Shown: positions 30,656-59,697, numbered from the stretch's first letter. The stretch: DNA of 64,000 nucleotides from a virus (IMGVR_UViG_3300010275_000472:6276-70275); one strand, 5' to 3'. Translations and numbers: made by a program. Notes: generated by a model not told the origin, from the sequence alone.

Positions 30656-30717
30656 TTTATTGAGCTGTTGCAGATTTTGCAACGGCTGGAAGCAATGTGC
30701 AAAATTTGCACATTGCT

Positions 30718-31722
30718 TTACTCCTTCAGATCCTTCACTGCCCTATCAAAGTCCGACACGATCTTCTGCGTAGGATTGAACAGGTCATACTCAGCTTCTG
30801 CCTTTTCTCTGGCCTGCCGGGCAGATATCTTGCCCTTGTCTGGCAGGATGTCATACCGCCGGAAGGACAGAAACTCGTTGATACTGGCGGCAAACTGTTC
30901 CATGGTGAAGGTATTTTCCCGCTCGATCAGGTCCTCGATATAGTCAAAGTAGCCCGACACGGTACGCTCCAGCTGGCGGATCTGTTTCTCGGACAGGTAG
31001 TTCTTTGCCACCGACACATCCGACTTGAGTACACGGCCTTCGGGGGCATTCTTCCATGTGGTCAGTCCCATGTGATCCTTGGTGTGGTCAGCCTTGTTAT
31101 ACACGATCTCTGCCGCCGTCTGGCCGGTGATGGCGTAATGGAACTTGTTCTGCACCATGGCATAGAAGTCCTTGGTCACCGGTGAATTGCGGTCATAGTC
31201 AATACTGCACTCGGCAAAGATATCCGTCACCTGCTGCCAGATGCGGCGCTCGCTGGCACGGATGGAGCGGACGCGCTCAAGCAGCTCGCGGAAATAATCC
31301 TTGCCAAAGGCATCCTTGCCTTGCTTTAAGCGTTCATCATCCAGCACAAAGCCTTTGGTCATATACTCTTTGAGAATGCCGGTCGCCCAGATACGGAAGT
31401 GTGTGGCCCGGCGGGAGTTGACACGGTAGCCCACGGAGATGATGGCATCGAGATTATAGAAGTTGGTTTCCTGTGTTTGCGTTTTGTCTTCAAGCGCACC
31501 GTGGTGAGTGGTTGTTTCCATTTTGGAAACAACCACTTTTTCGTCAAGCTCACCTTCTTCAAAAATCTTCTTCAGATGTTTGCTGATTGCAGGCTTTTGT
31601 ACACCAAACAGTTCTGCCATACCCTGCTGGGACAGCCAGATGCTCTCATCCTTCACAATTGCATCAACGGAAACATCCTCTTCCGCTGAGCGGTATATCA
31701 AAAACTGAAAGTTGTTTTCCAT
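30718..31722 (-). CDS. rhuM: RhuM-family DNA-binding protein
   Basis: IWLSQQGMAELF, YNLDAIISVGYRVNSRRATHFRIWAT, KGFVLDDERLK, RVRSIRASE. Confidence 0.9.
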   Translation of the reverse strand: MENNFQFLIYRSAEEDVSVDAIVKDESIWLSQQGMAELFGVQKPAISKHLKKIFEEGELDEKVVVSKMETTTHHGALEDKTQTQETNFYNLDAIISVGYRVNSRRATHFRIWATGILKEYMTKGFVLDDERLKQGKDAFGKDYFRELLERVRSIRASERRIWQQVTDIFAECSIDYDRNSPVTKDFYAMVQNKFHYAITGQTAAEIVYNKADHTKDHMGLTTWKNAPEGRVLKSDVSVAKNYLSEKQIRQLERTVSGYFDYIEDLIERENTFTMEQFAASINEFLSFRRYDILPDKGKISARQAREKAEAEYDLFNPTQKIVSDFDRAVKDLKE

Positions 31723-31769
31723 CTCTTCTCCTTCCCTGCCCGTCCATGTTCCAGCATGGGCGGGATTTT

Positions 31770-32603
31770 TTATTTTTGAGCCAGATCAAACAGATATGCG
31801 CTTGCTTCACCAAGCTCTGACTTCTGGCCGTCTGTCATGTAAGGCAAATACGGTTCAAATGCCTGATGATATTTTTCGGCCCAGTTCTGTTTTGCTTTTG
31901 CTGTTTTCAGGCCCTCGATTTTTGCCTGATACTTTTCTTCCGTTCGATGAATGATTTCCTTTACAGCATCATCCCGGAAGCTAAGGCTGCGATACTTCTT
32001 CAAATCAGCTGTGGCGCTTACCGGTGCACCGTACTTTTTACACTTTTCGAGTTCCATCAAGCGTCCAACGCAAAAATCATATCTTGTAAAAAAAGTGGCA
32101 GGTTCCGTGGTCGTCTGAAGGATTTTTGCGCTTTCCTGAGCCTGTTTCAGAAATTGTGGAGCCAAAACCTTTGCATTCGAGCGAGAATCAACAAGGCCAG
32201 TCTGCCCCATCCATTCGGGATTTGGAATATAAAACTGTTCCTCCCCGTCAAGCTCGTCTTCCTGTTCAATCCCTGCTAACCCATCCTTTATGCCTTTGAC
32301 TGTTCCATACATAATACTGAATACAGCCAGCGCGGCCCAAAAACCTACAATGCCGCAAAAGAACGACACTCCAATGCCACAGCTCGCGGAAGCAATAAAA
32401 AAGGCCAGCAAGCCAACTGCAAGGCTTATAAATACATATTTTGCGGGAAATTTGATTTTTGCAGGCTGGTTCCGGATACTTCCTGCAGCCTTCCCGACAG
32501 CTCCAGCTCCACGAAAAGCGGCATCAATGCCTTTATTCAGGCTCTTGTTGCCTGAACGCTTTCTATGCCACTCTTTACGGCCATAAGGTGACGATCTCCC
32601 CAT
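31770..32603 (-). CDS. AT-rich membrane-anchored hypothetical protein
   Basis: Two TM segments then a soluble helical domain; GGAGG RBS before MGRSS. Confidence 0.75.
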   Translation of the reverse strand: MGRSSPYGRKEWHRKRSGNKSLNKGIDAAFRGAGAVGKAAGSIRNQPAKIKFPAKYVFISLAVGLLAFFIASASCGIGVSFFCGIVGFWAALAVFSIMYGTVKGIKDGLAGIEQEDELDGEEQFYIPNPEWMGQTGLVDSRSNAKVLAPQFLKQAQESAKILQTTTEPATFFTRYDFCVGRLMELEKCKKYGAPVSATADLKKYRSLSFRDDAVKEIIHRTEEKYQAKIEGLKTAKAKQNWAEKYHQAFEPYLPYMTDGQKSELGEASAYLFDLAQK

Positions 32604-32619
32604 GATATTTCCTCCTGCT

Positions 32620-33249
32620 TCAGATATCCCGGCAGAGCCCCACGGCCTTGCCTTCAATGACAACGGTGTTCATTTCCTCTTTGGTGAGGATGATGCTCTC
32701 AAACGCCGGGTTTTCCGGGCGGAGCTCTATAAAGTTTTCGTGGAGATACACATGCTTCAGGGTAGCTTCCTCGCCGATGCGCACCGCTGCGATTTCTCCC
32801 TGCTCCACCTCCGGTTGGCTGCGAATCGCCACCAGATCACCGTCGTGGATGCGGGGCTCCATGCTGTCGCCCTTGCAGGTCAGCGTAAAGGTGGAGTGCC
32901 AGCGGGAAGGCACACAAACCATTTGCTCTACATTCTCTTCCGCCGTGATGGGCGTCCCGCAGGCGATCCGGCCTACCAGCGGCACCCAATCCATCTCCGG
33001 CATAGGCTGGAAGCCCGGCGGGATGGTGGGCTTCTTGGGCTCCGGCTGTTCTTCCCAGCCCATCAGGTAGGCGGGGGTGGTCTGCAATATCTTTGCAAGT
33101 TCCGCAAAGATATCCACAGGGACTTTTTCAATATCGCCCTTTTCATATCTATAGATCGTAGCCGGAGAAACGCCAAGACGCTCAGCAACCTTTTCTGCCG
33201 ACAATCCAATCTCTTTTCTGCGTTGCTTCATTCTTTCACCGGTGGTCAT
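32620..33249 (-). CDS. CI/LexA-type repressor with S24 peptidase
   Basis: HTH; cleavage site IACG; catalytic GDSM and TLK motifs. Confidence 0.92.
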   Translation of the reverse strand: MTTGERMKQRRKEIGLSAEKVAERLGVSPATIYRYEKGDIEKVPVDIFAELAKILQTTPAYLMGWEEQPEPKKPTIPPGFQPMPEMDWVPLVGRIACGTPITAEENVEQMVCVPSRWHSTFTLTCKGDSMEPRIHDGDLVAIRSQPEVEQGEIAAVRIGEEATLKHVYLHENFIELRPENPAFESIILTKEEMNTVVIEGKAVGLCRDI

Positions 33250-33284
33250 TTTTATCACCTCTTGATATGAGAATACACGAAAAG

Positions 33285-33403
33285 TCGCAAAATTGCAATA
33301 GTTAAATGCAATTTCAAGAAATTATTTTGCAAAAATGCGAGCATTCTATTGACTTTCATTTCTGCGAGTGCTATCCTATGTGCAGAAGCTCGCATAATTG
33401 CGA
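33285..33403. promoter_or_regulatory. Prophage 2 switch: operators T(C/T)GCA-N4-TGC(G/A)A and cro promoter
   Basis: Copies at 33285, 33327, 33390, plus one after cro at 33641; TTGACT-17-TATCCT (33349-33377). Confidence 0.8.
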
Positions 33404-33427
33404 GAATGTAAAGGAGGTGAAGAAGCA

Positions 33428-33637
33428 ATGTCTACCAACATGAATCTGCTGCGTGGAAAGCTTAAAGAGCGCAGCATGACCCAGCAGGAACTTGCGCATA
33501 AAATCGGCATGGATTCTAGTACTTTATCGCGAAAACTTGCATCGGACGGACTGAAATTCACGGTCGGTGAGATGCACGATATCGCGGCAACATTGAATCT
33601 GACCGCTAACGAGTGCAAATCTATTTTTTTGCTGTGA
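33428..33637 (+). CDS. Cro-like HTH protein
   Basis: LRGKLKERSMTQQELAHKIGMDSSTLSRKL; AAGGAGGTG RBS. Confidence 0.85.
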   Translation: MSTNMNLLRGKLKERSMTQQELAHKIGMDSSTLSRKLASDGLKFTVGEMHDIAATLNLTANECKSIFLL

Positions 33638-33678
33638 AACTCGCATTTTTGCAAGTTTGTCCAAAGGAGGTGAAGAAG

Positions 33679-33771
33679 ATGACGCAAAACGAACTCACTC
33701 AAGTGCTTCTGTGTGCGAGTCTGGTTCTCGGCATTGTGACAGCATTCCAGCGTTGGAAAAATCACTGGTAA
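33679..33771 (+). CDS. 30-aa hydrophobic peptide (not in ORF track)
   Basis: AAAGGAGGTG RBS; MTQNELTQVLLCASLVLGIVTAFQRWKNHW. Confidence 0.65.
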   Translation: MTQNELTQVLLCASLVLGIVTAFQRWKNHW

Positions 33772-34273
33772 AAGTTTTTGTGATGATTCCTTTATTGCTG
33801 AAAACTTTCAGCTTATAGGGCGCATTCTCTGCAATGTGTTTTGTGCTCCCAGTTGAAGATAAGACCATGTGCTCATATCCGAGGCCTTCAACTTTAATCG
33901 GGAAAATATCGGAATACCACTCTGACCGACTTACTTCTTTGTTCCCGTGCTTCCGGCTGTTTGTCAGAAGCTTCAGACGATACTCGCCGAATACGCACTC
34001 ACCCAGTTCAGAAGAAAGTTCGAGTCGGCTCAAGGTAATTGCTTCTCTGGACTTATTGATAAAGCAGATATTGAGGACCTCTGTGTATTCCTTTTCAGGA
34101 CTGGGCCCCAAACAGAAAACGTTCTGAACTTCGACGATGAGATTTTTTCGATTTTTGATCTTATCCGATGCAAAGTTCCAGATCGACAAAGCAAAACTGG
34201 CTACTGCGATTAAGAACGTCACATTATCCCGCACATTCAGCCACTCAACTATTTTGTTCCACATATCATGCAC
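33695..34273 (-). CDS. Reverse-oriented moron, N-terminal TM plus beta-rich domain
   Basis: AT-rich; promoter TTGTGC-17-TAAAAT just upstream. Confidence 0.8.
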   Translation of the reverse strand: MHDMWNKIVEWLNVRDNVTFLIAVASFALSIWNFASDKIKNRKNLIVEVQNVFCLGPSPEKEYTEVLNICFINKSREAITLSRLELSSELGECVFGEYRLKLLTNSRKHGNKEVSRSEWYSDIFPIKVEGLGYEHMVLSSTGSTKHIAENAPYKLKVFSNKGIITKTFTSDFSNAGMLSQCREPDSHTEALE

Positions 34274-34345
34274 ATCCTTCCTGTTTTCTCCATTTTACCG
34301 CAGGAGCGAGGTGCGCACAAGAAGGTGAACCACATGGACAACAAC

Positions 34346-34383
34346 AAAAAGCCCAGCGAACCTGCGGAAGAGGAACGCTGGGC
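34346..34383 (-). terminator. Terminator of second moron transcript
   Basis: GCCCAGCG / CGCTGGGC followed by T5 on - strand. Confidence 0.7.
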
Positions 34384-34402
34384 GCTGAAGGAGGTGAACA
34401 CG

Positions 34403-34483
34403 ATGAAGAATCCGTTAGCTGTTCAGATTCTGGCTCTGAGCATCCAGATCCTTGCACTGGTTGTCATTTTATTAAAGAAATAA
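34403..34483 (+). CDS. 26-aa hydrophobic peptide with KK tail
   Basis: AAGGAGGTG RBS; MKNPLAVQILALSIQILALVVILLKK. Confidence 0.65.
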   Translation: MKNPLAVQILALSIQILALVVILLKK

Positions 34484-34754
34484 ACATGGATGCAGCAGCA
34501 ATTAAAATCGCAATCAAATTGTAAAGCCGGTTGATTCGATCTTCTTTTGCCTGCTCACGGTCTTTTTCCTCCTGTTTTCGCTGACTCTCTTCAAACTGCT
34601 GTTGCAGCTTTTTCAGATTTTCAGCGGTACTCAGTTGAGCCGACAACTGCATCGCATGTTCTTGCGCCGCAGCGCGTGCAACTGTAGCCATCGCTTCATG
34701 GTCTCGCGCAACTGCATTAGCTGAGCATTTAACCACATCATTCAGTTCAGACAT
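34464..34754 (-). CDS. Reverse-oriented moron, coiled coil with C-terminal TM anchor
   Basis: GGGAGGTG RBS; promoter TTGTGG-17-TAGAAT upstream. Confidence 0.75.
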   Translation of the reverse strand: MSELNDVVKCSANAVARDHEAMATVARAAAQEHAMQLSAQLSTAENLKKLQQQFEESQRKQEEKDREQAKEDRINRLYNLIAILIAAASMFISLIK

Positions 34755-34826
34755 TATTTTCACCTCCCTTCTGTCTCTCTATTCTATCGCAGAAGGGAGC
34801 CACCCACAAGGAGGTACATCTTCACC

Positions 34827-35495
34827 ATGAACGACATTATCTTATCCACCCAGAACGGCGAACCGGTGGCATCCAGCCGGGACGTTGCCAAGCGCTTTGG
34901 CAAGGAGCACAAAGACGTGCTCCGCGCCATCAAGAGTATCACAGCGCAAAATTGCGCTGTGACCCAGATGTTCTACCAGAGCGAGTACACCGCAGGCACT
35001 GGCAAGAAGTACCCCATGTACCTGATGAACCGTGACGGCTTTTCCCTGCTGGCCATGGGCTTTACCGGCAAGGAAGCCGTGCAGTGGAAGCTCAAGTACA
35101 TCGAAGCCTTCAACCAGATGGAAAAGCAGCTGGCCGCGCAGCACAAAGAGCAGCAGGCCGTGCAGGATGCCAACATCCAGAACGCCATCGACCGGGTGAT
35201 CGAAGCCCGGAAGAAGCTGGACGAGAACACCGCTTTTCTGGACGAGCGCCGCAAGAACCGCGAGGACAGCAAGGCCAAGTATATGCAGGTCAAGGCCCTG
35301 TGCGGCGAGTTCAAGGCCATTTACGGCCAGCATTGCGACACGGTGCGCACCATGGAGAACGTGGTGCGCGGCTCCCAGAGCTTCCTTACCAACGCCATTG
35401 ACAGCCTGACCATCGTTGCCAAAGGCTACCCGTTCTACGCCGCCCTGATGGACAGCCTGCTGGATGGGCTGCCCGCCGAAAAGAAGGAGGAATAA
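34827..35495 (+). CDS. rha: Rha-family phage regulatory protein
   Basis: ASSRDVAKRFGKEHKDVLRAI, YLMNRDGFSLLAMGFTGKEAVQWKLKYIEAFNQME. Confidence 0.92.
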   Translation: MNDIILSTQNGEPVASSRDVAKRFGKEHKDVLRAIKSITAQNCAVTQMFYQSEYTAGTGKKYPMYLMNRDGFSLLAMGFTGKEAVQWKLKYIEAFNQMEKQLAAQHKEQQAVQDANIQNAIDRVIEARKKLDENTAFLDERRKNREDSKAKYMQVKALCGEFKAIYGQHCDTVRTMENVVRGSQSFLTNAIDSLTIVAKGYPFYAALMDSLLDGLPAEKKEE

Positions 35496-35496
35496 A

Positions 35497-35760
35497 ATGT
35501 TGAACCCATCAACCATTCGCGGCACTTTCAAGCAGATCCCATACTGGAAGCTGCGGGGACGGTTCCACAGCTGCGGCTACCGCGATCAGGAAGTGGCTGA
35601 GTACATCGGCATTGGCCGGGACACCATGAGCGGCAGGATGCAGGGGCACAACCCGTGGACAAGCACGGAGATCACTGCAATGTGTGAGCTGCTGGGTATC
35701 CGGCAGAATGAAATCGGGGAGTATTTCTTCCCGCGTGTCGAGGAAGGAGAATCCGCATGA
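35497..35760 (+). CDS. HTH protein
   Basis: DQEVAEYIGIGRDTMSGRM. Confidence 0.75.
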   Translation: MLNPSTIRGTFKQIPYWKLRGRFHSCGYRDQEVAEYIGIGRDTMSGRMQGHNPWTSTEITAMCELLGIRQNEIGEYFFPRVEEGESA

Positions 35761-35996
35761 AGATCAAATCCGGCGTATGGTACTGGCTGGCCGTGGCCAG
35801 CGGGGCCGTGGGCCTGCTGTACGGCATGGGGCTGGAGGGCAGTTTCCAGACCGGCGGCACCGTCTCGGACGGCGCGTTCATCACGGCTATGGTGCTGATC
35901 CTGCTGGCGGTGTTCTTTGCCCGGCTGGGCTTTGCCTCCCATGATCGGGAGCAGCAGGAGCGCCGCAAGGTGCACCAGCAGCCCGCAACACCGTAA
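35757..35996 (+). CDS. Small two-TM membrane protein
   Basis: Two hydrophobic helices; ATGA-coupled. Confidence 0.75.
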   Translation: MKIKSGVWYWLAVASGAVGLLYGMGLEGSFQTGGTVSDGAFITAMVLILLAVFFARLGFASHDREQQERRKVHQQPATP

Positions 35997-36021
35997 AGAG
36001 CGGCAGGAAGGCAGGCTGAGC

Positions 36022-36351
36022 ATGAGCGACTTCAAGACCTACACCCGTATCTGCGTGGACTGCGGCAAGGTGCTCTGCAATGTCGGACGCTCTGCCCAGC
36101 GCTGCCCCGAATGCGGCAAAAAGCACGCCAACGCCCTGAGCCTTGAATGGGATCGCCGGCGCAATGAAGAACTGCAGGCCCAGCGTCAGGGCCTTGCCGC
36201 TGAGCGCAGCAGCCTTGCCCTTCACGCCGAGGTCCGCGCTGCAGAAAAAGCCGGCCTGAGCTACGGCAAATACATGCTGCAGAAAATGCAGGCAAACAAA
36301 AAGCCCGCCGGTGCGCCAACACCGACGAGCCCAAAGGGTGATGGAATTTGA
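36022..36351 (+). CDS. Zn-finger hypothetical protein
   Basis: CVDCG...CPECG. Confidence 0.7.
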   Translation: MSDFKTYTRICVDCGKVLCNVGRSAQRCPECGKKHANALSLEWDRRRNEELQAQRQGLAAERSSLALHAEVRAAEKAGLSYGKYMLQKMQANKKPAGAPTPTSPKGDGI

Positions 36352-36361
36352 AAGCCCCATC
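36295..36361 (-). ncRNA. Candidate antisense sRNA (homologous to 23341-23405)
   Basis: TTGTAA-18-TATGAT with TG extension (36368-36397); two hairpins; U-tail. Confidence 0.65.
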
Positions 36362-36401
36362 ACCCCGATCATACCATAAAATCGGAGGTTTTTACAAGAA
36401 A

Positions 36402-36803
36402 ATGAATGCAAAAAATAAAAACGCACTGCTGGAGCACATCAAAAACGCGCCCGAATGGCAGTCCGCGCTGATCTACGAGCAGCTTGCTGCCCTGAACAAA
36501 GCAGCAGCCGACATCTCCACCGGTACTTCCACACTGGAGCAGGGCTTTGCCGACGGCAAGCTCCGGCCCGACCGCTATTACTGTTCCGACAGGGTCTTCC
36601 GCCGGGACTGCAACACCGGCGTTCTGGACAGCATCGCGTCCGCCCTTGGCAGGGCTTTGGCGGCGCTGGAAGTTTTTTCCGCCCTGTCCGATGCATTCCA
36701 GCGGGAGTACCTCTCCAGCGTCGAAATCTCGCAGGGCATCTACTACAACGAGCTGGAAAAGCTCTGCCTCAGGCATGGGTACACGAAGGAGGACAACGCA
36801 TGA
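36402..36803 (+). CDS. Hypothetical protein (133 aa)
   Basis: GGAGG upstream of MNAKNK. Confidence 0.7.
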   Translation: MNAKNKNALLEHIKNAPEWQSALIYEQLAALNKAAADISTGTSTLEQGFADGKLRPDRYYCSDRVFRRDCNTGVLDSIASALGRALAALEVFSALSDAFQREYLSSVEISQGIYYNELEKLCLRHGYTKEDNA

Positions 36804-37096
36804 AAGGCATTCTGATCGAACCGGACAAGGGGCCCGTGGTCACCACCCTGCCGGATACGCTGCAGGGCATTGAAGCATGGTTGGGCGGGCACGCTGACCA
36901 GAAATATTTCTCCCGCACACCTGCCATCCTGATGCACAGTGCCGCAGGCCGGGAGCCGAACCGCATCTGGCGCGGCGAGGTTCTTTGCGGCACTCTTCTG
37001 TGCTACGGCTGGCGCGGCGGCCGCCTGCAGCCCCTGAACAAGGCCCTGCAGGCTGAGCTGCTGGACAGGCTCAAGGACACGGAGGTGCGGGTATGA
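36800..37096 (+). CDS. DUF3846-like protein
   Basis: GILIEP...TLQGIEAWLGG...NR...CGTLL; AAGGAGG RBS. Confidence 0.6.
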   Translation: MKGILIEPDKGPVVTTLPDTLQGIEAWLGGHADQKYFSRTPAILMHSAAGREPNRIWRGEVLCGTLLCYGWRGGRLQPLNKALQAELLDRLKDTEVRV

Positions 37097-38622
37097 TCAT
37101 CAGCCAGAACAGCAACGATGTTTACTACGCCTATACCCGTGGGCGCTTCTGGCGCTGGGACGGATCCGCACGGGTCTGGAAGGAAAGCCATCTGCTGGCG
37201 CAGAAATTCGGCAAGGCCAAGGCAGCTGAAAAGCGGCTGACCCCGGAAGCGTTTCTGACCGGCGATGAGTTCATCCCCATGGATGACTACGAGCTTCCGC
37301 AGTCGATGCTGACGGCCCTCATGGAGGCCAAGCCCTGCAAGAACGCGCCCATTGAACCGGCGGAAGAACACCCTACCCCATCCGCGCAGTATTCGGATGC
37401 TGCCACTGCTGCGGAAAGCCAAACTGCGGCATCCCCGGCAGCGCCGGAGGGGTCAAGCCCTACGACGGAGAAGGCAGATGCTGTCAGCGGCTCCGATGCT
37501 CCGGGCAATGCAACCGGAAAGAACGCTGCACCATCCGCTGGCTCCGGCAGCTCTTTGAGTAATCCCGCCGCGCCTACCTTTGACTTTTCCGCTCTGGGCG
37601 AGCTGTCCGAACAGGCCGTGGAGACCGACCAGCAGTTCGACCTGCATTACGGTGTTTCAAAGGATGAATATCTCATTTCCTGCATCTATGTTGCCAAGAT
37701 GCACGCCCTGACGGCCAAGGCTGGCCGCTATGGCGGCGGTACATGGACAAAGTGGTATGAGAGTAAAGGTTTAAGCCATGGCAGCGCCACAAAAATGGTA
37801 CAGAATGGCGATGCTTTTAAATCGTCAACTGTTGACGATTTAAAATGCCTGTCAGAACTGACCCGCAAGGACCTGAACCTGATCGCCCGCTCCGGCTGTG
37901 CGGAACAGCTCACCGCAGCTGCCGGAGACAGCCAGCGGGTGCAGGAGCTTTTAGCCCAGCTCAAGGCCAAAGAGTACAAACTGAACGAAACGCAGGCCAG
38001 ATTGAAGAGCGCCTGCATTCAGGAGCAGGAGTCGCGGGACGCAATGAATACCGCCAATGCTCAGCTGGAAGCCGCAAATGCCGACATTAAAGGTCTGACA
38101 GAGCAGAACGCCCAGCTGAAAGAGCGCGCCGACTCTGCCGAAGCCCGGGAAGAGGAAGCATGGAAGATGCAGAGCAAGGCCGAAGCCCGGGCCAAGAACG
38201 CCGAGGATGCCCTCAAAAAGCAGCCCATCGTGGGCGTGACTGACCCGGAAGAAGTCCGGCGGCAGGCGGATGCCCTTGCCGCCGAAGCAAAGGCGCAGGC
38301 CCGCAGACAGATCGAGGACGCTCAGCGCCGGGCTCGTGAAGCCGAAGCCAGATACCAGAAGCTGCAGCAGGATGCAGACGGTTTCCTTGCGCCGGAGCAG
38401 TCCTGTGCCCAGCAGGCAAAGATCATCGCTGATTCCATGCGCAGCATGTATCTGGGCTGGTTCGGCCTTGCCAGCACCACCGGCACCCCGCTGGCCCGCA
38501 TGGCCGCGCCGATCTATCAGGTGTGCGATGAAATTCGTGAATCACTGGAAGAAGATACCACCATCAACCCTACTGCGGAGGGCAGTGTGGAGGACGCAGA
38601 ACGGGAGGCGTTGTTTGAATGA
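37093..38622 (+). CDS. Hypothetical protein with central HTH-like (DUF3102-like) segment and long coiled coil
   Basis: 509 aa; GTWTKWYESKGLSHGSATKMVQ; heptad-rich C-terminal half. Confidence 0.7.
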   Translation: MIISQNSNDVYYAYTRGRFWRWDGSARVWKESHLLAQKFGKAKAAEKRLTPEAFLTGDEFIPMDDYELPQSMLTALMEAKPCKNAPIEPAEEHPTPSAQYSDAATAAESQTAASPAAPEGSSPTTEKADAVSGSDAPGNATGKNAAPSAGSGSSLSNPAAPTFDFSALGELSEQAVETDQQFDLHYGVSKDEYLISCIYVAKMHALTAKAGRYGGGTWTKWYESKGLSHGSATKMVQNGDAFKSSTVDDLKCLSELTRKDLNLIARSGCAEQLTAAAGDSQRVQELLAQLKAKEYKLNETQARLKSACIQEQESRDAMNTANAQLEAANADIKGLTEQNAQLKERADSAEAREEEAWKMQSKAEARAKNAEDALKKQPIVGVTDPEEVRRQADALAAEAKAQARRQIEDAQRRAREAEARYQKLQQDADGFLAPEQSCAQQAKIIADSMRSMYLGWFGLASTTGTPLARMAAPIYQVCDEIRESLEEDTTINPTAEGSVEDAEREALFE

Positions 38623-56265: not shown

Positions 56266-59200
56266 GTGGACACAGTGGCATTCGATTTTGACATTACCGG
56301 CAACACCAAACTGGACACCAACGGCTTTACCAATGGCATTTCCAGCATGACGGTGGCTGCCGGTACGCTGATTGCCGACTTTGTAAAATCGGCCACCAGC
56401 AAAATGGCCGAGCTGGTGACATCCTCAGTGGATATCGGCGCGTCCTTTGAGACAGCCCTTGCCAAGGTCAGCACTATTGCCGACACGGGCAAGGTCTCGG
56501 TGGGCGAGCTGAGCAAGCAAATTCTCGACACCTCCGACAGCATGGGCGTTGCCGCTGCAGACATTGCCGAAGCGGCCTATCAGGCCATCAGCGCAGGACA
56601 GGACACCGCAAATGCCGTGGCCTTTGCCGGACAGGCTTCCAAGCTGGCCGCTGCGGGCTTCACGTCCAGCAGTGCGGCGGTTGACATCCTGACCACCGCC
56701 CTGAATGCCTACGGCATGAGCGCAGAGCAGACCACCCACGTTTCGGATGTATTGCTGACCACCCAGAATCTAGGCAAGACCAGCGTAAACGAATTGGCGT
56801 CCAGCATGGGCAGGGTCATCCCGCTGGCTGCGGCATACGGCGTCACCGTCGAAAACCTGTCCAGCGGTCTGGCTGTTCTGACCGCCAACGGCATTGCTAC
56901 GGCAGAAGCTACCACCTACACCAAGTCCATGCTCAACGAGCTGGGCGACGCCGGTTCTACTGTCGGTAAGATTCTGCAGCAGCAAACCGGCAAGGGCTTT
57001 GCCCAGCTAAACGCCGAGGGCAAGAGCCTTGGCGACGTGCTGCAGATCCTCTACGACAGCGTGGACGGCGACAGCACTGCCTTTGCGGGTCTATGGTCGA
57101 GCGTGGAAGCAGGTACCGGTGCACTGTCGCTGGCGTCCGGCGGTGCAGAGCACTTTAACGATGTTCTCAGCCAGATGCAGAACAGCGCTGGCGCTACCGA
57201 GACCGCCTACGAGACCATGACCGACACCTTCCAGCACAAGGTGGACACCCTGCAGACGGCGGCGCAGAACCTCGGCATCACCCTGTTTGACTCGCTGGAA
57301 CCGGCGCTGTCGGATGCCGCCCAGTGGGGCACCGACTGCATCACCAAGCTGACCACCGCCCTGTCCGAGGACGGGCCGGAAGCTATGCTGGCCGCTGCCG
57401 GAGAGATCATCTCTGATCTGGCGGGCAGCATTGTCCAGCAGCTGCCCAGCCTGATGCAGTCCGGTGTGGAGATCATCGATCAGCTGGCGACTGGCATTGT
57501 GGAAGCTACACCACAGGTGTTGAGCGTGGCGGCTTCTGTGCTGGGCGCACTGGTGCAGGGCTTGAGCGAAGTGCTGCCCCAGCTGGTGGATACCGGCATT
57601 CAGATGATCTCTCAACTGGGTGAGGGGCTGAAATCCGGCCTGCCTGATCTGATGGCGCAGGCAATGCCCGTTGTTGCAGACTTTGCCAGCGGCCTGCGTG
57701 AGAATGTCGGCCAGATCGTAGACGCCGGTATCGAGCTTATCCTGAATCTGGCGCAGGGCATCGCGGATGGCCTGCCTACGCTGATCGAGTACCTGCCCGG
57801 CATCGTCTCCGATATCGCGGGCATTATCAACGACAACGCCCCCAAGCTCCTGATGGCAGGCGTGCAGCTGATCGTCACTCTGGGCAAGGGCCTGCTTCAG
57901 GCGGTTCCTACCCTCGTTGCCAACATTCCGCAGATCATTCAGGCAATCGTCGATGTGTGGAGTGCCTTCAACTGGCTCGACCTCGGCGCAAAGGCAATCA
58001 AGCTTCTCAGCAACGGTATCACTGGAATGGTTGGAGCTGTCAGCAATGCTGGCAAAAGCATTGCTGACAGCATCGTGAACGCCATCAAGAACCTTCCTGA
58101 CACGCTGGCAAACCTTGGCAAGGTCGCCATGTACGACCTGCAGGGGGCTATCACGGGCGCGATTGGTGCGTCCAAAGTGGCAGCTCTCAAAATCGTATCC
58201 GGCATCGAGACCTCGTTCAACACGCTCCCTGCCCACCTTCTCAGTATCGGCAAAAACGCGATTCAGGGTCTCATCAACGGCATCGCCGAGATGGCGGGCG
58301 CCGTTGTAAAATCCATCACCGGTGTGGTCAGCGGCACCGTCAACACCGCTAAGGGCATTCTCGGCATCCACTCCCCGTCCAAAGTCTTTGACGAGATCGG
58401 CTTGAACATCTGCAGGGGTCTTGCTGAAGGTCTGACCATCAACGCACCCCTCGCCGAAGACGCTGCAAAACAGGTCGTCGCTTCTGTCACCAGCACGACC
58501 GAAGCTCTGACCGGCTCGATGCAGACCGTGACAGAGACGGTCACGGAAATCCTCAAGGACGGCACCACCCAACAGAAGCAGGTCATCACCGAGGTCTACG
58601 ACGACGTGGTGGACGGTGCCCTTGTGACCATCGAGCGGGTCAAGACCATCGCCGCCGACGGCACTGTACAGGTGGCTGAGCAGGTCAAAAAATCCAGCGC
58701 GGACACCTTCGACGGCCTGTGGAAGGAGCTGCAGACCGAAGCGGACGCCGGCGTGCTGGGCACCTTCGATGATCTGTACACCGCCGTCAAAAATCAGGAC
58801 TGGCTCTCCGTCGGCAAGTGGGTCGCAAACACCATCTACAGCGGCCTGACCGCCGACCAGAAGCAGCAGGTGCAGTCCTTCGCCCTCGGCATCGTGGACA
58901 AACTCAACGCGGCGCTGGGCGGTGCCCGGGACAAGCTGGTGCAGGGCGCCATCGACCTCGGCACCCAGATCTGCAGCGGCCTGACCGGCGGCTTCTCTGA
59001 GGTCTGGCAGCAGGCGCAGGGCCTCGGCTCCACCCTCGTCTCGGTCTTTCAGGGCCTGCAGGGGCCGCTGAGCACGGCGGCTCTCGCCATCAGTCAGGGC
59101 CTGAGCGGCGGTCTGCTGTCCAGCTTCCCCGCCATTTTTGCGGGCGTGGCTTCCCTCGTCGGCACCATCGGTGCGGCCTTTGAGGGCCTGTTGGCCGCCA

Positions 59201-59697
59201 TCTCCGCCGCCCTGAGTGCGACCATCTTTGGCATCCCGATGGGCCTTGTGGTGGCCGCAGCCGCCGTTGCGCTGGGCATTGCCATTGCGGCCATCTGCTC
59301 CCGTCTGGGCGGCAGTAAAAAGAGCAGCGGCGTGTCCGGCGGCGGCTCTTCGGGCGGTGGCGGCGGCTCCGGCAGCATGGGCAGCGTGGACATCACCACC
59401 GGCACCGGCAGCCTTGAGGACGCCATCAACGCCAACACCAAGGCGCTGGAAAAGACGAACTCCGCCCTTGCCGACATGATCCGGCAGGCGGGGGCTCTGG
59501 TGCTGTCTGACAACATGCGCCTCGGCTCCACCGTGGCCGCTTCCGGTACCGCGCAGGTGGTGTCCGCTGCAAACAGCTACCGCCGGGAGGGCGACACCAA
59601 CATCATCCAGAACTTCTACAACGGCCACGATACCGCCGCCGCACAGCAGCGGGAAGCCCGCTGGGAGGCCGACATGGCCCGCCGTCAGCGCCGATGA
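56266..59697 (+). CDS. Tape measure protein
   Basis: 1143 aa Ala/Gly-rich, TP901-type core, amphipathic repeats. Confidence 0.93.
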   Translation: MDTVAFDFDITGNTKLDTNGFTNGISSMTVAAGTLIADFVKSATSKMAELVTSSVDIGASFETALAKVSTIADTGKVSVGELSKQILDTSDSMGVAAADIAEAAYQAISAGQDTANAVAFAGQASKLAAAGFTSSSAAVDILTTALNAYGMSAEQTTHVSDVLLTTQNLGKTSVNELASSMGRVIPLAAAYGVTVENLSSGLAVLTANGIATAEATTYTKSMLNELGDAGSTVGKILQQQTGKGFAQLNAEGKSLGDVLQILYDSVDGDSTAFAGLWSSVEAGTGALSLASGGAEHFNDVLSQMQNSAGATETAYETMTDTFQHKVDTLQTAAQNLGITLFDSLEPALSDAAQWGTDCITKLTTALSEDGPEAMLAAAGEIISDLAGSIVQQLPSLMQSGVEIIDQLATGIVEATPQVLSVAASVLGALVQGLSEVLPQLVDTGIQMISQLGEGLKSGLPDLMAQAMPVVADFASGLRENVGQIVDAGIELILNLAQGIADGLPTLIEYLPGIVSDIAGIINDNAPKLLMAGVQLIVTLGKGLLQAVPTLVANIPQIIQAIVDVWSAFNWLDLGAKAIKLLSNGITGMVGAVSNAGKSIADSIVNAIKNLPDTLANLGKVAMYDLQGAITGAIGASKVAALKIVSGIETSFNTLPAHLLSIGKNAIQGLINGIAEMAGAVVKSITGVVSGTVNTAKGILGIHSPSKVFDEIGLNICRGLAEGLTINAPLAEDAAKQVVASVTSTTEALTGSMQTVTETVTEILKDGTTQQKQVITEVYDDVVDGALVTIERVKTIAADGTVQVAEQVKKSSADTFDGLWKELQTEADAGVLGTFDDLYTAVKNQDWLSVGKWVANTIYSGLTADQKQQVQSFALGIVDKLNAALGGARDKLVQGAIDLGTQICSGLTGGFSEVWQQAQGLGSTLVSVFQGLQGPLSTAALAISQGLSGGLLSSFPAIFAGVASLVGTIGAAFEGLLAAISAALSATIFGIPMGLVVAAAAVALGIAIAAICSRLGGSKKSSGVSGGGSSGGGGGSGSMGSVDITTGTGSLEDAINANTKALEKTNSALADMIRQAGALVLSDNMRLGSTVAASGTAQVVSAANSYRREGDTNIIQNFYNGHDTAAAQQREARWEADMARRQRR

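Follow-up and report, generated by a model that had tools for sequence, protein, structure and literature searches.

We found that three genes in a 64,000-nucleotide stretch of viral DNA (IMGVR_UViG_3300010275_000472:6276-70275; the whole stretch is called the window here) each carry a perfect DNA palindrome inside their coding sequence, just past a predicted helix-turn-helix (HTH). The genes are rhuM, rha, and an open reading frame (ORF) of 509 amino acids, here called ORF509 (Table 1). The same codons are palindromic in homologues of all three, though both the DNA and the peptide differ among relatives. Comparison of the coding sequences indicates that the palindromes are probably a functional DNA site. 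The reading we tentatively prefer, at somewhat less than even confidence, is that each palindrome is the candidate cognate site of a dimer of the protein encoded around it, acting in cis and forming one cassette with its reader.

The palindromes are not explained by chance. We scanned the window for perfect inverted repeats with spacers of up to 12 nt and found eight with arms of at least 10 bp, including four with arms of 14-15 bp. Five of the eight fall within 30.6-37.9 kb, the lysogeny/early region of this Faecalibacterium-type prophage. For comparison, we made 60 block-wise dinucleotide shuffles, whose longest arm mostly measured 9-11 bp; all of them together gave only one 12-bp and one 14-bp repeat. 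Arms of at least 14 bp were thus observed four times, compared to approximately 0.02 times per shuffle, and chance is no explanation for the repeats. A first-pass annotation of the window had listed all three palindromes. We found the one in ORF509, which is AT-rich within a GC-rich gene, at the same coordinates and with the same 15-bp perfect arms. Those in rhuM (listed as 31508-31536, 13-bp arms) and rha (34940-34961, 10-bp arms) are also real, with arms that are each 1 bp longer than listed. The annotation had seen nothing comparable in structural genes. This was mistaken, as a palindrome with 15-bp arms lies in a tape-measure-like ORF (Table 1).

The palindromes keep their position in homologues. 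We read the DNA at the aligned codons of viral-contig loci covering the site (66 for RhuM, 99 for Rha, and 83 for ORF509), and we also sampled RhuM at 80 genome loci of many phyla. The RhuM palindrome was at the same codon position in 44 distinct viral-contig sequences and at the 80 genome loci, 60 of which had at least 10 matched bp with at most one mismatch. The phyla represented were Firmicutes, Bacteroidota, Proteobacteria, Spirochaetes, Verrucomicrobia, and Saccharibacteria, and there were more than 10 arm types. These alignments point to conservation of place across phyla at least for RhuM. The Rha genes of viral contigs fell into six arm types, all located where the palindrome lies in the window and all with inner arms that match perfectly over at least 6-7 bp. 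Perfect 15-bp arms were present in 18 of 37 distinct ORF509 homologue segments, which fell into five arm classes with different peptides.

Both arms change together, and amino acids are altered thereby. In an ungapped alignment of RhuM, 87% of cells were paired, compared to 25-44% with slid partners, and 13 of 14 pairs had changes on both sides. The ORF509 alignment, also ungapped, had 95.6% of cells paired, compared to 28-56% with slid partners, and changes on both sides in 6 of 15 pairs. We compared the mean perfect arm with that obtained by synonymous resampling of the same peptides. The observed arm was 8.4 bp for RhuM (4.2 resampled), 7.1 bp for Rha (4.3 resampled), and 11.6 bp for ORF509 (4.8 resampled). 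Because the synonymous redraw roughly halves arm length, the peptide does not account for the palindrome. The first-pass annotation had proposed asking whether this segment is variable in homologues yet palindromic above shuffled-codon expectation, and it is so in all three families. Control palindromes in the cI and tape-measure genes of the window were not conserved: by the same procedure, their homologues had arms of only 3-7 bp.

We found that third codon positions inside the RhuM palindrome are constrained. We aligned 128 distinct RhuM genes by codon; the entropy at third positions of four-fold codons had a mean of 1.84 bits and a minimum of 1.52 bits, indicating saturation. Inside the palindrome, the entropy was 0.00 (V63), 0.22 (V65), 0.10 (S66), 0.00 (K67), 0.00 (E69), 0.28 (T70), and 0.64-0.87 bits (V64, T71, and T72), and it was back at 1.8 bits by G75. 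In all three genes, third positions lie opposite third positions, which is the cheapest register for coding. With third facing third, pairs could co-vary without cost to the protein, yet they stay fixed. Unbiased arm-to-arm correction would permit neutral joint drift, and the absence of such drift shows that the element is under purifying selection, apparently for its sequence as well as for its pairing. Codons ending in A or T are rare in the GC-rich phages that carry ORF509 and Rha, yet the palindromes of these two families have them fixed. Nearby, the same amino acids have C/G-ending codons, in a background that is less saturated than that of RhuM.

As judged from these alignments, the data indicate that selection acts on the DNA itself, and not on the peptide or on an mRNA hairpin. 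In the ORF509 and rha palindromes, with centers of 1 and 2 nt, respectively, the innermost pair is not formed in a folded strand. Nevertheless, 23 of 27 ORF509 sequences keep this pair complementary, and five show a change on both sides of it. Sense-strand G.T and A.C mismatches numbered 31 and 36 in RhuM, 8 and 11 in Rha, and 0 and 0 in ORF509; an A.C mismatch corresponds to G.U only on the other strand, and the comparison is a weak one because few positions contribute. No Rfam family or terminator-like site was found on the three palindromes, and no T run follows any of them.

The changes in the element have the pattern of template switching between its arms, in which both arms are rewritten and the spacer is flipped. 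The RhuM spacer was AAA in 66 sequences, TTT in six, and another triplet in one. On either of two trees (FastTree on short alignments, palindrome columns left out), the 8 RhuM tips with TTT need at least six changes. A flipped spacer changes two residues of RhuM and, on duplex DNA, presents the same site from the other side. In four of the five arm classes of ORF509 the center came in two states only, which were T/A, T/A, C/G, and A/T, respectively. The combination of an inverted spacer and arms that change in concert is the signature of template switching in inverted repeats, including those in coding DNA (PMC8604942, PMC5941160). Bacterial genomes are reported to contain more perfect inverted repeats than expected and to conserve them, which has been attributed to template-switch correction (PMC5941160), and multi-residue changes in coding DNA can arise through template switching (PMC8604942). 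Template switching had been raised in the first-pass annotation. The concerted arm changes and the reverse-complement states of the spacer agree with that idea, which is already published in kind.

The type of palindrome goes with the type of recognition helix. In 65 distinct Rha sequences, residues 4-28 and 65-104 were invariant (entropy about 0), and residues 29-64, which comprise helix 3, the palindrome, and the wing, had entropies of 1-2.7 bits. Six helix-3 types of Rha corresponded one-to-one with the six palindrome types. Recognition-helix type and palindrome class also corresponded one-to-one in ORF509, and for RhuM the inner-arm type went with the residues that open helix 3. This inner-arm type required 26 changes on a tree of the RhuM HTH domain, where shuffles gave a mean of 49 and a minimum of 44, and 44 changes on a C-terminal domain tree, just under the lowest shuffle (minimum 45, mean 49). 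Pairwise distances in the RhuM palindrome segment had a correlation of 0.53 with those in the N-terminal domain and 0.09 with those in the C-terminal domain. The discordant signals from the two domains suggest frequent reassortment of the halves of RhuM (loci L160-L307). A maximum chi-square breakpoint scan peaked at RhuM codon 88, a peak that is confounded by the difference in rate between the domains.

We suggest how such a cassette would work. The twofold-symmetric DNA element lies in codons for a variable linker just past the recognition helix of the HTH, and a dimer of the encoded protein would read it as its cognate site. The reading head (recognition helix and wing) and the putative site are within about 100 bp of each other, and they would be inherited and diversified as one specificity cassette, like ori and the O protein in lambdoid phages. 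For RhuM and Rha, intragenic binding would lead to autoregulation. ORF509, a coiled-coil HTH protein at the head of a replication module, might instead use the element for fixed anchoring or as an origin-like site. An extension of this reading, which we regard as possible and rather doubtful, is a self-referential specificity cassette, in which the DNA coding for the linker is the candidate site read by the dimer and template switching diversifies both. A single template switch could rewrite both half-sites and the adjoining residues and would flip the spacer without cost. Site and reader would then diversify jointly and could not be separated by recombination.

Several of our results weigh against the palindromes being cognate sites of the encoded proteins. 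The link between helix and palindrome may reflect a cognate site inherited with its reader, but mere adjacency (30-100 nt) predicts the same link. The earlier proposal that each gene encodes its own operator gains some support in that palindrome type follows recognition-helix type, and plain adjacency explains this equally well. With up to three mismatches allowed, no further copy of any half-site or core was found in the window. Half-sites and cores were also not above cross-type controls in the flanks of RhuM and Rha loci. As an operator, the element would stand alone. Usual HTH operators are shorter than these elements, which are perfectly symmetric through the center over 24-31 bp, and about half of the RhuM genes have a stable mid-arm mismatch. 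Among ten distant Rha genes of cultured phages, only two had a significant palindrome at this place: those of an Stx2a phage (11/12 pairs) and SPbeta (yoqD; 10/11 pairs). Where Rha carries three palindromes in tandem (below), one of the three has a core that is paired elsewhere with a different helix-3 type. The non-HTH gene hsdS has a conserved palindrome of its own (below), so the phenomenon is not confined to HTH genes. Finally, all counts given here are per sequence and not per independent event.

A DNA element that acts by structure only, extruding a hairpin or cruciform regardless of its sequence, is in our judgment unlikely. Such an element might be a replication or priming signal, a hot spot for recombination or repair, or a local mutator that diversifies the adjoining DNA-contact surface. 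It would not explain why the pairs beside 1-2-nt centers stay complementary though they cannot pair in a hairpin, why third-position pairs that are free to co-vary stay fixed (T-A pairs never become G-C), or why the unpaired spacer is invariant save for its reverse complement, which looks like sequence reading. The mid-stem mismatch tolerated in half of the RhuM genes counts against it as well. The appeal of a structure-only element is that palindromy is kept while the sequence varies among types, that AT-rich centers favor extrusion, and that predicted single-strand folding of the three palindromes is strong (z-scores of -4.8, -4.9, and -7.0). In addition, the palindromes of Rha and ORF509 are embedded in a variable stretch of the protein, the gene for ORF509 is the first of a replication-type module, a similar element is present in hsdS, and non-B DNA is known from eukaryotic work to provoke error-prone synthesis (PMC3874155). 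A hairpin in the mRNA, which might pause the ribosome once the HTH domain has emerged, serve as an RNase III target, or stabilize the transcript, seems to us a good deal less probable. The stems would be very stable in the transcript (by DNA parameters), they lie at a domain boundary in all three genes, and clusters of rare codons coincide with the palindrome. However, the sense strand shows no preference for G.U-compatible mismatches (the weak test above), the symmetry runs through 1-2-nt centers, the spacer variants are reverse complements, equivalent in duplex DNA and not in RNA, and no Rfam family or terminator-like site was found there.

The palindromes might also have no function and be by-products of template switching, which would perfect and preserve inverted repeats where the protein tolerates many sequences, for example in a linker after an HTH. 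Concerted arm changes and spacer inversion are both present, no parts of the otherwise conserved domains vary more than these segments, and lone, unconserved palindromes with 10-15-bp arms occur in the cI and tape-measure genes of the window. An excess of repeats, their correction, and multi-residue coding changes have been published (PMC5941160, PMC8604942). We consider this improbable: unbiased correction would not produce the slowing of neutral change at synonymous sites of the RhuM palindrome (0-0.3 bits, compared to 1.84 in the rest of the gene), rare codons are fixed in Rha and ORF509, and the palindromes in the control genes are not kept. In addition, the element has kept its codon position across phyla and, in each of three families, lies past the recognition helix. 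Very improbable, in our estimate, is that rha, the first large early gene, houses a distal operator for CI/Cro in its palindrome, comparable to the remote third operator of some phages. The rha core does differ from two of four sites around cI and cro by only one mismatch in 12. However, 27 of 29 loci with the rha type of the window lack such upstream sites (the exceptions being the window and L145), such sites are present at loci of another rha type, and matches in the window overall were fewer than expected by chance. This reading also cannot cover rhuM and ORF509, whose palindromes differ. As a general reading it was rejected, since rha type is not tied to upstream operator type across loci.

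Genes that contain a site for their own product are textbook cases, as in ori within lambda O and parS within spo0J. In lambda, the binding sites of O, the replication initiator, lie within gene O past its N-terminal winged-helix DNA-binding domain; ori comprises four 19-bp iterons and an AT-rich stretch. Among lambdoid phages, the type of ori site co-varies with the type of O DNA-binding domain. The palindromes in the window likewise lie in their own coding sequence after a DNA-binding domain, and their type co-varies with that of the domain, for which adjacency may be the cause. They differ from ori in that each of the three genes has a single putative site and no iteron array (some Rha homologues, with three sites, are the only exception) and in that only one of the three proteins belongs with replication genes. 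The site parS is a perfect palindrome of ~16 bp within spo0J/parB that is bound by the encoded HTH protein and held across phyla. As with parS, the elements described here are palindromes inside genes for HTH proteins, held at the DNA level across phyla, at least for RhuM. Unlike parS, which is near-invariant and present in several copies per chromosome, they vary by type, are unique in the genome, and come right after the recognition helix.

Two other kinds of palindromic DNA are found in coding sequence. The crossover sites of Hin/Gin-type invertases are palindromes of ~26 bp with a 2-bp center, located in an ORF at the junction of protein parts, and the rha palindrome has this geometry. Inversion requires two inverted copies and an invertase, whereas no second copy was found in the window with up to three mismatches, which excludes an inversion switch. 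The palindromic elements of Rickettsia are in-frame mobile repeats of 100-150 bp with many copies per genome. They resemble the elements in the window as palindromic DNA that is translated in a segment tolerated by the protein, and they differ from these in that the latter are short, single, family-specific, and at a fixed position. Template-switched inverted repeats (PMC5941160, PMC8604942) share with the elements in the window their perfect arms, concerted rewriting, spacer inversion, and multi-residue steps. In contrast to those repeats, the arms of 11-15 bp described here are at a fixed codon position through families and across phyla, the synonymous sites are constrained, and the type follows the recognition helix.

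We found no description of these elements in the literature on RhuM palindromes, Rha inverted repeats, or DUF3102. The suggestion of the first-pass annotation that they could reflect an undescribed mechanism goes too far, given ori, parS, and the published template-switch evolution of coding repeats (PMC5941160, PMC8604942). As to its suggestion of a mechanism shared across unrelated families, such palindromes do occur in three families; they are not confined to HTH genes, since hsdS has a conserved coding palindrome of its own, and they are not general to all Rha genes.

In prophages, defense islands, and type I restriction loci, few poorly understood genes are as common as those for RhuM and Rha, and a DNA element that stays at the same codons across phyla, at a cost to the protein sequence, is a handle on what they recognize. 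The elements are a clean natural case in which selection at the DNA level overrides protein sequence and in which one round of template switching brings about a set of coupled amino-acid changes. Such elements should be allowed for in codon-based models and wherever a segment is analyzed as "hypervariable" or "positively selected". If each protein does read its own palindrome, the principle of lambda O and ori would extend from replication initiators to regulators, which would explain matched specificities despite rampant domain shuffling. If template switching does diversify site and reader together, this would be a cheap and general route to new, mutually insulated specificities of mobile-element regulators, covering RhuM, Rha, XRE-like coiled-coil proteins, and perhaps others.

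Table 1. Palindromes, genes, and predicted reading helices in the window (AF2, AlphaFold 2)
Feature	Position	Strand	Description
Palindrome in rhuM	31507-31537		14-bp arms, 3-nt A-tract spacer, perfect; codons 62-72
Palindrome in rha	34939-34962		11-bp arms, 2-nt center, perfect; codons 38-46
Palindrome in ORF509	37815-37845		15-bp arms, 1-nt center, perfect; codons 241-251
rhuM	30718-31722	minus	334 aa; winged-helix-like N-terminal domain and RhuM domain; Pfam PF13310, E 7e-106
Predicted recognition helix of rhuM	31558-31596	minus	codons 43-55; AF2 model
rha	34827-35495	plus	222 aa; Phage_pRha domain, residues 16-100; Pfam PF09669, E 3e-30
Hypervariable cassette of rha	34911-35018	plus	codons 29-64: helix 3, palindrome, wing; flanks invariant
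ORF509	37093-38622	plus	variable N-terminus, predicted XRE-like HTH core (~188-282), long coiled coil
Predicted recognition helix of ORF509	37777-37818	plus	codons 229-242; AF2 core model
Palindrome in tape-measure-like ORF (1143 aa, 56266-59697)	58036-58071		15-bp arms, 6-nt spacer
Palindrome in cI-like XRE repressor gene (32620-33258, minus)	33087-33113		10-bp arms
Operator-like 14-bp palindromes	33285-33298, 33327-33340, 33390-33403, 33641-33654		5-bp arms, 4-nt A/T center

The position of the palindrome just after the HTH, as the first-pass annotation had described it, holds in all three genes, as judged from AF2 models for RhuM and ORF509 and from the variable helix for Rha. The rhuM product matches the Virulence_RhuM model (PF13310) over residues 64-319 with 353.6 bits, compared to a cut-off of 33.7. 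In the AF2 model, the N-terminal domain (predicted local distance difference test [pLDDT] of 61-87) has three strands, helices at residues 32-39 and 43-55, and then strands at 65-73 and 81-89. Because the helices precede codons 62-72, the palindrome encodes the linker and the first wing strand, directly past the predicted recognition helix. The modeled domain resembles winged-helix DNA binders: its matches include the N-terminal domain of DdrC, Dachshund, and the DNA-binding domain of pSK1 Par, with middling Z scores of 5.6-7.5. No sequence relatives of RhuM or Rha were found among solved structures, and E. coli genomes contained no DNA match to the rhuM of the window. The notion that a DNA hairpin encodes a protein hairpin was dropped, as the model has RhuM codons 65-73 in a single wing strand. 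A weak promoter-like match overlapping the rhuM palindrome was also dropped, as its first hexamer is not conserved in homologues. The C-terminal domain of RhuM is 70-80% identical in protein across very distant phyla, with synonymous sites saturated.

Another perfect palindrome, with 14-bp arms, a 1-nt center, and no T run, lies at 30690-30718, in exactly the interval that separates the stop codon of rhuM from the start of the integrase gene. Related contigs, among them L160 and L171, conserve this palindrome, and in its inner arms it is similar to the palindrome found inside the genes of another RhuM type. In other genomes, several RhuM genes likewise have a perfect palindrome, differing in sequence, within ~20-110 nt downstream. 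Most of these have a 1-nt center (L260, L265, L191), and the one at L261 has a 3-nt spacer.

The rha product matches the Phage_pRha model (PF09669) over residues 16-100 with 105.1 bits, compared to a cut-off of 29.9, and PHROG 518, a Rha-like regulator (E 6e-38). The codons of the palindrome are within the Pfam domain, after a variable helix at approximately residues 28-37. Three Rha loci (L089, L090, and L101; about 2100-2219) have an in-frame insertion of ~24 codons that results in three tandem palindromes, two of them with the rha core of the window.

ORF509 is the first gene of a replication-type module, with an AAA_24 gene downstream. No Pfam family matched the whole ORF at E<=0.01, and none matched core residues 160-306 at E<=10 save a chance match to SAM_1. 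The label "DUF3102-like" given to it in the first-pass annotation was not supported, as there was no match to Pfam DUF3102 even at E<=10. A weak match was to PHROG 1733, of unknown function (E 5e-6). The AF2 model of the core (pLDDT about 62) has helices at residues 218-224 and 229-242 ahead of codons 241-251, which encode the last part of helix 3, a loop, and a further short helix. In a structure comparison, XRE-type HTH domains made up about 40 of the 50 best-matching solved chains, with Z scores of only 4.4-6.4 at this pLDDT of 62. The modeled core appears to resemble dimeric XRE-type HTH domains, which bind palindromic operators. ORF509 is a mosaic: many relatives (L001-L079) share only approximately residues 145-392, which cover the HTH core and the beginning of the coiled coil, and their N- and C-terminal parts are unrelated.

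The type I restriction gene hsdS that lies approximately 0.5-1.3 kb downstream of rhuM in seven genomes (L205, L237, L238, L240, L241, L245, and L303) contains a conserved coding palindrome with 12-13-bp arms and a 7-nt spacer. This palindrome is in the central conserved region of the gene, in antisense-codon register, with one two-sided change in L241. The palindrome in the tape-measure-like ORF is also in antisense-codon register (A/S, V/D, and N/I codon pairs) and is absent from homologues of <=54% identity; it may be a recent product of template switching in a low-complexity coding stretch. The cI-like gene has its palindrome after the HTH as well, in third-to-third register, and the palindrome is kept in one close relative only (L347). 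Of the four operator-like palindromes, three are in the cI-cro intergenic region; the fourth follows the cro-like gene and immediately precedes a 16-nt ribosome-binding stretch that is repeated. These four are probably the immunity operators.

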